Origin: a virus
Lineage: Duplodnaviria; Heunggongvirae; Uroviricota; Caudoviricetes
Direction: 5' to 3' (one strand)
Length of the DNA stretch: 64,000 bases
Virus record (IMG/VR): IMGVR_UViG_2711768056_000005
Below, one piece after another: positions 38,533 to 39,342 of this stretch; the stretch's first letter is position 1; every line of letters begins with the position of its first letter. Under the pieces are notes generated by a model. It was not told the DNA's origin and made no database searches. It worked only from the letters and a program-made list of their open reading frames with translations. Both the position numbers and the translations under genes were made by a program.

Positions 38533-39342
38533 ATGCAAGAAGAGAAACAACACTACCTCTACGTTCTGGTGCCAGAGAACGGAGATACTTTTAAAATCGG
38601 CATTTCATGTGGTCCATTGGCACGGTTTAAAGGGCTACAAGTGAGTCCCGATTTTGCGCTTTCACGGGTCTATCGTGGTACGCGTTTGGCAATGGTTAAT
38701 CTTGAGCGGGCTTTACACGCAACCTTTTTCCCCTGGAATGCGCCGTGGGAGAAAAGCGCCGGTGGCGGGCATACTGAATGGTTTACACGAGAGTGTCTTG
38801 ATAAGGTTTTGGCTCATATCGAATATCTAAATGATATGTGGGGAGGGATTCTCGAGCGCATTAAGTCGAATGATTTACTTCAGCGTCCAGTAGATGCTGC
38901 TTGCTCTTTCGAAAAAGAGTTGGATGTTACTTCTATCGTGACTTTCAAAGATGACGCAGGAATGAGGGACGTGGCTTATGTCTCCATATCTGGCTATGAA
39001 CCGGACGCGATCCGCGCTCAATGTGAATTGCTGAAAGCAATGTTTATGCTTCGGACTAAATATCCCTGGGATACAGGGCGGGTGTGCTTCCCTATGGAAG
39101 AGTTAACCGCCACCATTGATTCCCAGCTTTACCACGATAATCCAGAGAAGTTTTTTAGCCTTTTAGCCGGTAATGGGCTTAACTGTGTGTCCGGGCTGGG
39201 GCGAAGTAGAATCCAACATGCCTCGCTCTTCGGTCCCTTCTTTTACGATCGACACGGGTACTTTGAGGCTGAACTTCCGGCGCTTACGCGTGCTATAGAT
39301 ACTATCGATTTCGAACGATTATTCGCTGCTCTTAGCAAATAA
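38533..39342 (+). CDS. T5orf172-domain (GIY-YIG superfamily-like) protein (269 aa), between incA and parA
   Basis: HYLYVLVPENGDTFKIGIS...R...LERALHATF...HTEWF follows the T5orf172 signature order. Confidence 0.5.
   Translation: MQEEKQHYLYVLVPENGDTFKIGISCGPLARFKGLQVSPDFALSRVYRGTRLAMVNLERALHATFFPWNAPWEKSAGGGHTEWFTRECLDKVLAHIEYLNDMWGGILERIKSNDLLQRPVDAACSFEKELDVTSIVTFKDDAGMRDVAYVSISGYEPDAIRAQCELLKAMFMLRTKYPWDTGRVCFPMEELTATIDSQLYHDNPEKFFSLLAGNGLNCVSGLGRSRIQHASLFGPFFYDRHGYFEAELPALTRAIDTIDFERLFAALSK

Follow-up and report, generated by a model that had tools for sequence, protein, structure and literature searches.

Gene X, an open reading frame at 38533-39342 on the plus strand of the window (the whole 64,000-nucleotide stretch of viral DNA analyzed here), is best read as an accessory gene of the selfish type, in which a T5orf172 catalytic domain is connected through a flexible linker with a putative targeting domain of winged-helix (WH) fold. 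The gene lies between the replication and partition genes of a P1-like phage-plasmid. Our preferred explanation, which we hold tentatively and at slightly less than an even chance, is that X encodes a homing-endonuclease-like or Odn-like nuclease at a cassette-exchange boundary, acting on related P1-type replicons that do not carry X.

The ORF starts with ATG and encodes 269 aa, which match PHROG 2876 over the full length. Residues 8-85 (38554..38787, plus strand) match the Pfam family T5orf172 (PF10544; E=4.7e-6, 27.5 bits, with a gathering score of 20 bits), and this N-terminal domain of GIY-YIG fold extends to about aa 112. The C-terminal WH domain covers aa 128-269 (38914..39339, plus strand). 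A sequence-only reading of the region had described a 269-aa gene with this nuclease-superfamily domain, starting 30 bp after the last iteron and followed by its own terminator ahead of the par promoter, and all of this was borne out. The last iteron ends at 38502, which leaves a gap of 30 nt before the ATG at 38533. A G+C-rich hairpin (39350-39364) lies 8 nt past the stop codon and is followed by a T-run, together forming an intrinsic terminator (39350..39370, plus strand; GCCCC TGAAC GGGGC TTTTTT). The Ppar promoter/operator region at 39428..39456 (plus strand) is the best promoter-like site, marks the start of the par cassette and is 99-100% common to P1.

X occurs in four lineages, namely the window type, P0004 (in L003), P0010 (in L004/L005, Salmonella) and P0011 (in L006, from a gut metagenome). 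An equivalent terminator is found downstream of X in L006 as well. No consistent candidate for a sigma-70 promoter serving X alone was found upstream of the gene across the four lineages, where site counts were at chance level, and no terminator was found between repA and X. Co-transcription with repA is therefore the simplest inference. An Rfam search of the region for RNAs gave no match. RefSeq labels X a ‘GIY-YIG nuclease family protein’, and in JL22 the gene is gp57. In the phi456 record (OR339795.1) it is labelled ‘terminase small subunit’, which looks like an annotation error; X should not be auto-annotated as a terminase or as a maintenance gene.

The window belongs to a P1-like phage-plasmid of the RCS47/SJ46/phi456/JL22 type, to which it is 98.7-99.9% identical across 5 kb. 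It is ~98% similar to P1 as far as position 37158 and again from 39409, and nothing between these positions can be aligned. The left break falls just beyond the shared DnaA-box/GATC part of oriR, and the right break just 5' of the -35 element of Ppar. The resulting replacement cassette of 2.25 kb (37159..39408, plus strand) holds the ori iterons, repA, the downstream iterons, X and the terminator. RepA of the window is 42% identical to that of P1; ParA, ParB and gp23 are 99.7-100% identical. The replicon corresponds to the ‘p0111’ type of PlasmidFinder, also called ‘RepFIB-like’ (PMC9603915). MOB-suite/PLSDB type it as ‘IncHI1B’, which looks like a typing error.

The incC-like ori iterons at 37172..37279 (plus strand) were located by repeat search as five direct copies with the core TTGACTATACGCGA, which spans 14-16 nt. 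They are followed by repA (37356..38240, plus strand), which encodes a p0111-type Rep_3-family initiator of 294 aa with the Pfam domains Rep3_C and Rep3_N, labelled RepA/RepB-family in RCS47 and in plasmids. The longest repA ORF would start at TTG 37320 and give 306 aa; RefSeq and the alignment with L003 favor ATG 37356. The incA-like downstream iterons (38239..38502) comprise two direct copies (38239-38285), immediately past the repA stop codon, and four inverted copies (38360-38502). An additional iteron-like copy, TGTTGACTATAAGCGA, lies within the repA coding sequence at 37958-37973, matches the reference copy at 94% and is also present in repA of L003. The direct and inverted downstream iterons are separated by the motif TTGACGCTGGTGGATTTT (38287-38304), which is kept in the other p0111-type lineage, L003 (7915-7932). 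In the window, this motif contributes to a short inverted repeat. Its core, GTGGAT, resembles a DnaA box, so that a role in regulation or in the binding of a host factor is possible.

Canonical P1 (NC_005856) has no CDS from incA iteron 1 to Ppar, a stretch of ~190 bp of non-coding DNA. This agrees with the sequence-only reading, in which no gene was expected at this position in P1. No remnant of X was detected in the 171-bp incA-Ppar spacer of P1 by blastn-short, tblastn or global alignment, nor any homology to the flanks of X. The same reading had taken the downstream repeats for the incA iterons of P1 itself, and thereby implied an extra gene on the P1 replicon. Neither part holds, as the iterons belong to the p0111-type replicon and X lies within the swapped segment. 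We considered an insertion of X into P1's own replicon and rejected it because RepA is so divergent, the iterons show no relationship to those of P1 and the exchange takes in the entire cassette. Judging by these alignments, X is part of the replaced cassette and not an addition to the P1 replicon.

The exchange of cassettes is not limited to the window and P1. The backbones of L003 and L004 are near-identical (ParA 99.7%, ParB 98%, gp23 99.5%), whereas their cassettes differ, with 40% identity for RepA and 29% for X. One breakpoint between these two elements coincides with the first ori iteron and the other lies 84/63 bp past the X stop codon, and the breakpoint between the window and P1 lies 67 bp past the X stop codon. 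Such breakpoints would be expected at the edges of any diverged cassette between stretches of conserved DNA. L004 is of the IncY type: its RepA is 83% identical to P1 RepA, its last incA iteron is the same as P1 iteron 1, and X begins 24 bp past this iteron. A gene missing from canonical P1 is thus present in an IncY-type relative. In P7-type IncY plasmids, a different parA is found ~115 bp past incA, and X is absent. The synteny comparison with P1-family replicons suggested in the sequence-only reading thus showed the gene to be missing from P1 and from P7-type plasmids and present in L004.

IncY-type P1-like plasmids carry either P1-type or P7-type par (L023, NZ_CP032067.1, 4355-4755; L001, 4827-4997), and in about half of the 20 evenly spaced IncY matches listed, the match to P1 ends exactly at the end of incA. 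Exchange of the rep module at this junction is therefore independent of that of the par module. From these comparisons, the incA|par junction is read as the boundary of two independently exchanged cassettes, with X on it. The same fixed intergenic site varies in having or lacking the gene both between the window and P1 and between L004 and P1/P7-type IncY elements. A finer pattern is seen in L012 (NZ_CP059910.1) when positions 37000-39600 are compared: it is identical to the window over 37000-38327, which takes in the ori, repA and the direct iterons, and has 24 differing sites from 38328 through X and onward, a distribution that places a recombination breakpoint within the downstream iterons. 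We considered X as a hot spot of recombination and rejected the idea, as the SNP mosaics come from too few genomes and the pattern is compatible with ordinary recombination. No hybrid of a P1-type IncY repA with a window-type X was seen.

The family search covered 5.8 billion protein clusters together with an exhaustive HMMER scan of 1.84 billion representatives. In the cluster and HMMER searches, the full-length family was found in only the four lineages, and profile searches added none. X is 27-44% identical across these lineages. In each of them it is placed between a rep gene with downstream iterons and parA in P1-like elements, and its ATG lies 20-30 bp past the last inverted iteron in 4/4 lineages, which have three unrelated iteron sequences. 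About 70 other matches share the T5orf172 domain only (residues ~4-117). These relatives are found in accessory regions of other mobile elements, next to a large ParB_N protein, toxin-antitoxin/HTH modules, or umuDC and a relaxase, and not beside rep genes. The rep-adjacent habitat is therefore specific to the four-lineage family.

These data bear on the alternative that X is a cargo conflict gene, involved in defense against phages or plasmids or in anti-defense, which merely occupies a permissive junction without any link to the replicon. The accessory setting of the T5orf172-only relatives would fit such a role, and GIY-YIG nucleases do act in defense, with PD-T4-3 found among the fold matches of X. 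The fast evolution and dispensability of the gene, discussed below, point the same way. However, neither the PADLOC defense models nor NCBIfam matched X, it is a single gene without partner genes, and the known variable cargo regions of P1-like elements are located elsewhere (PMC9603915). In addition, chance parking is hard to credit when full-length members occupy one and the same slot, and no other, in four lineages that differ in their rep and par cassettes. We consider the cargo explanation improbable, and less likely than the regulatory role discussed below.

At an identity of at least 90%, X is present in 401 PLSDB plasmids and 12 phage records, and no more distant relatives were found in PLSDB and the phage records. 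p0111-type RepA, likewise at an identity of at least 90%, is present in ~396 plasmids, and the next RepFIB-type RepAs are less than 50% identical. The agreement between these two counts shows that X and the p0111 replicon essentially always occur together. The exceptions in PLSDB are truncations by IS elements or rearrangements, and neither an X-less p0111 cassette, i.e., an empty site, nor X with another replicon was found in that database. The near 1:1 linkage between X and p0111 RepA, together with a grouping of the window and L003 that mirrors that of RepA, fits plain vertical inheritance too. Among 5,426 complete E. coli genomes, X occurs in 412 (7.6%) and the X-less IncY cassette in 359, and ~14% have either replicon type. 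Seven of the X copies and eleven of the IncY repA matches in these genomes are chromosomal, which suggests occasional integration of P1-like elements or fragments.

The N-terminal domain of X has the alpha/beta fold of GIY-YIG (URI) domains. Residues Y10, K21, G23, R31, E58, H62 and E82-W83-F84 are invariant in nine homologs, and R31 and E82 (in TEWF) match the catalytic Arg and Glu of T5orf172/GIY-YIG nucleases. Their spacing from the ‘KIG’ motif is that of R27 and E75 in I-TevI. At the Tyr of the second GIY-YIG motif, all four P1-type lineages have Phe (F20), as do most close homologs; among the close homologs aligned, only P0022 has Tyr at this position. Taken together, X is a predicted nuclease of the T5orf172 family within the GIY-YIG superfamily.

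A disordered linker (residues ~114-127) precedes the C-terminal domain, which was modelled alone as a winged helix with a pLDDT of 82 and a pTM of 0.79. No sequence relatives of this domain were found outside the four lineages. Its longest and best fold alignments, over 101-105 residues, are with the WH1 domain of Rep_3 iteron initiators, and the best match in BFVD, an independent library, is a COG5527 plasmid-replication initiator (probability 0.99, E 6e-3). Sequence kinship with the neighboring RepA was considered and rejected, since comparison of the X C-terminal profile with the RepA profile by hhalign gave a probability of 0.2%, and neither Pfam at E<=10 nor a PDB sequence search returned a Rep-family match. 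Given the modest fold scores and the negative profile comparison, ‘initiator-WH1-like’ denotes a resemblance in fold and not a proven homology. X is acidic in all four lineages, with a pI of 5.4-5.5 for the whole protein and 5.0-5.5 for the WH domain, and a net charge of about -6. Such acidity is atypical for a DNA-targeting domain, a sequence-specific DNA binder or a classical homing endonuclease.

An acidic WH domain is better suited to contacts with another protein than with DNA, and this is one reason to consider X as a domesticated, non-essential modulator of replication. WH1 is the dimerization domain of Rep proteins. The acidic WH1-like domain of X might bind the basic cognate RepA or the iteron array, and thereby tune the monomer/dimer balance of RepA, handcuffing or the function of incA, with T5orf172 serving as a DNA-binding or nicking module. 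The resemblance of the C-terminal fold to WH1 fits this role, as do the Phe in place of the motif Tyr, the position of X directly abutting the copy-control iterons and probably within the repA transcription unit, and the fact that each RepA/iteron type has its own X variant. There is also a precedent in CapR, as proteins of the T5orf172 lineage have been domesticated as regulators before. On the other hand, X shows no sequence similarity to RepA, and its equivalents of the catalytic Arg and Glu have been kept even in very distant homologs. P1- and P7-type IncY replicons without X also have normal copy control. The sequence-only reading had proposed that the gene could influence copy control or partition, and this finds no support in IncY plasmids of these types, which replicate and partition normally in its absence. 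Overall, we find a modulator role unlikely.

The divergence of X differs from that of its neighbors. Between the window and L003, RepA is 84% and ParA 89% identical, compared with 44% for X, whose nuclease domain retains 61% identity and whose WH domain, the fastest to diverge, retains 34%. Between L004 and L006, X is 40% and RepA 43% identical, and the iterons are unrelated. The divergence of X thus does not simply track that of RepA, as X is about as similar at a RepA identity of 43% as at 84%, which argues against the modulator role. Among p0111-type alleles, the dN/dS of X is 0.18-0.35 (about 0.26), and that of repA, parA and parB is 0-0.06 at a dS similar to that of X. These ratios indicate that X is a selected coding gene whose constraint is much weaker than that of its neighbors. 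A dN/dS below 1 means that X is kept by selection, which counts in favor of a modulator.

Disrupted copies of X are common. Eight independent lesions were verified at the DNA level: the nonsense lesions W68*, L93*, S112* and K176*; deletions of 2 nt in codon 41 and of 1 nt in codons 67 and 71; and an insertion of 531 bp at codon 90 (L009, 1962-2492; GCA_041947905.1), whose reverse strand presumably encodes a C-terminal fragment of an IS91-family transposase. An IS1 element is inserted inside X in plasmid NZ_CP100960.1, and a truncated X product (P0080) is indexed in 223 sample blocks. In a sample of 60 plasmids evenly spaced among the 401, X was disrupted in ~6-7 (~10%). RepA and ParA are unchanged at the protein level in p0111-type plasmids where X copies are disrupted. 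The frequency of disrupted alleles shows that X is dispensable for replication and partition, and the invariance of RepA alongside natural knock-outs is difficult to reconcile with a modulator. It also leaves the proposed influence of X on copy control or partition without support from the p0111-type plasmids themselves.

The many disrupted alleles, together with the absence of X from P1, could suggest that X no longer has a function and is a relic in decay. We regard this as very improbable, far more so than the modulator role, as the dN/dS of X is clearly below 1 and ~90% of the copies are intact. Furthermore, the ORF has been kept in four lineages at 27-44% identity with conserved motifs in both domains.

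The reading of X as a homing-endonuclease-like or Odn-like nuclease draws on several of these features: the two-domain architecture, the fixed slot beside essential genes, the exchange boundary and the sporadic presence, as well as the fast-diverging putative specificity domain, the relaxed constraint and the recurrent knock-outs. Against it stand chiefly the acidity of the protein, the Phe in place of the motif Tyr, the absence of an empty site or an observed target, and the almost complete linkage of X to one RepA type. According to this explanation, X would probably be co-transcribed with repA from an iteron-controlled PrepA, with transcription ending at its own terminator. Should an element with X encounter the genome of a related P1-type plasmid or phage without X, the X protein would bind this genome at or beside the iteron array or the rep|par junction and cut there. 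The rival might then be repaired from the X-bearing copy and gain both X and the rep cassette next to it (homing with co-conversion), or else be lost (interference, as with ICP1 Odn). Once X is fixed in a replicon lineage, selection would relax and nuclease-dead alleles would build up.

A bolder version is that X is a replicon-directed nuclease in plasmid-against-plasmid warfare, in which the initiator-like WH domain recognizes the iterons of a rival, or its iteron-bound RepA, and the T5orf172 domain cuts. We think this is unlikely. If true, the rival would be destroyed or have its replication cassette replaced by the X-linked one, which would amount to ‘incompatibility by destruction’ brought about by a nuclease, and to a gene drive that acts on entire replicons. 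Such a system would be a plasmid-borne counterpart of the phage Odn and would explain the clean rep swaps in P1-like elements.

In E. coli and Salmonella, resistance genes are commonly carried by P1-like phage-plasmids, and their p0111 and IncY replicons, which serve in typing, replace one another in otherwise identical backbones. If the replicons of rivals are cut by X, or if X drives conversion of their cassettes, this could account for how replicons turn over and how phage-plasmids compete. The Odn and homing endonuclease concept, so far seen in lytic phages and satellites, would then reach into plasmid maintenance modules, and GIY-YIG-type nucleases would gain a new targeting module in the initiator-like WH domain. 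Even as no more than a selfish gene in decay, X remains useful for tracing cassette exchange. The gene itself is already known, as it is widespread, has been annotated and has been mentioned in the literature. A full-text literature search found no work on T5orf172 in P1-like elements among the matches listed. What appears to be new is that the four lineages form one family that keeps to this slot whichever of the three iteron types adjoins it, and likewise the initiator-like WH domain, the cassette-edge position and the population signature resembling that of homing endonuclease genes (HEGs).

Among known systems, T5orf172 HEGs have been documented at boundaries of genetic exchange in ICP1 and other phages (PMC10448857). 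X resembles free-standing HEGs (ICP1 gp53/121/130/165/174; T4 Seg, I-TevI type) in its intergenic location by essential genes at an exchange boundary, and in its variable presence between close relatives. Its predicted nuclease domain is joined to a second domain, which may correspond to the separate targeting domain of these genes. The frequent frameshifted and nonsense alleles are a further likeness. In contrast to these genes, X sits in the plasmid-maintenance region of a temperate phage-plasmid, and no clean empty site was found for it. The targeting domains also differ: 87% of surveyed phage T5orf172 HEGs use zinc-finger DNA-binding domains of the CapR/DUF723/DUF4397 families (PMC10448857), whereas X uses none of these and has a WH domain. 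With respect to the catalytic domain, X differs from SLX1, UvrC-N and I-TevI in the Phe at the second motif Tyr and in lacking the His/Tyr of the first helix, which is missing in Odn as well; the RING domain of SLX1 is also absent.

Another close parallel is the origin-directed nuclease Odn (Gp88) of ICP1, which cuts the iteron origin of a rival and in which E180, the equivalent of the catalytic Glu, is essential (PMC8263062). Genes similar to odn are known from the E. coli phages Inny, Muut and Mt1B1_P17 (PMC8263062; PMC10448857). Both proteins fuse a T5orf172 domain to a domain folded like the DNA-binding domain of a replication initiator, and both are tied to iteron replicons. X also resembles Odn in that its specificity domain diverges with replicon type while the catalytic Glu equivalent is kept. 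However, the domain order is reversed, with the nuclease N-terminal in X and C-terminal in Odn, and X is acidic. Moreover, X is encoded inside the replicon cassette itself, whereas Odn is encoded in the genome of the predator. The targeting domain of Odn is 42% identical to the RepA_N domain of its target, while X resembles the WH1 domain of Rep_3 initiators (P1 RepA, F RepE, pPS10 RepA, R6K pi), the closest fold to its C-terminal domain, by fold only.
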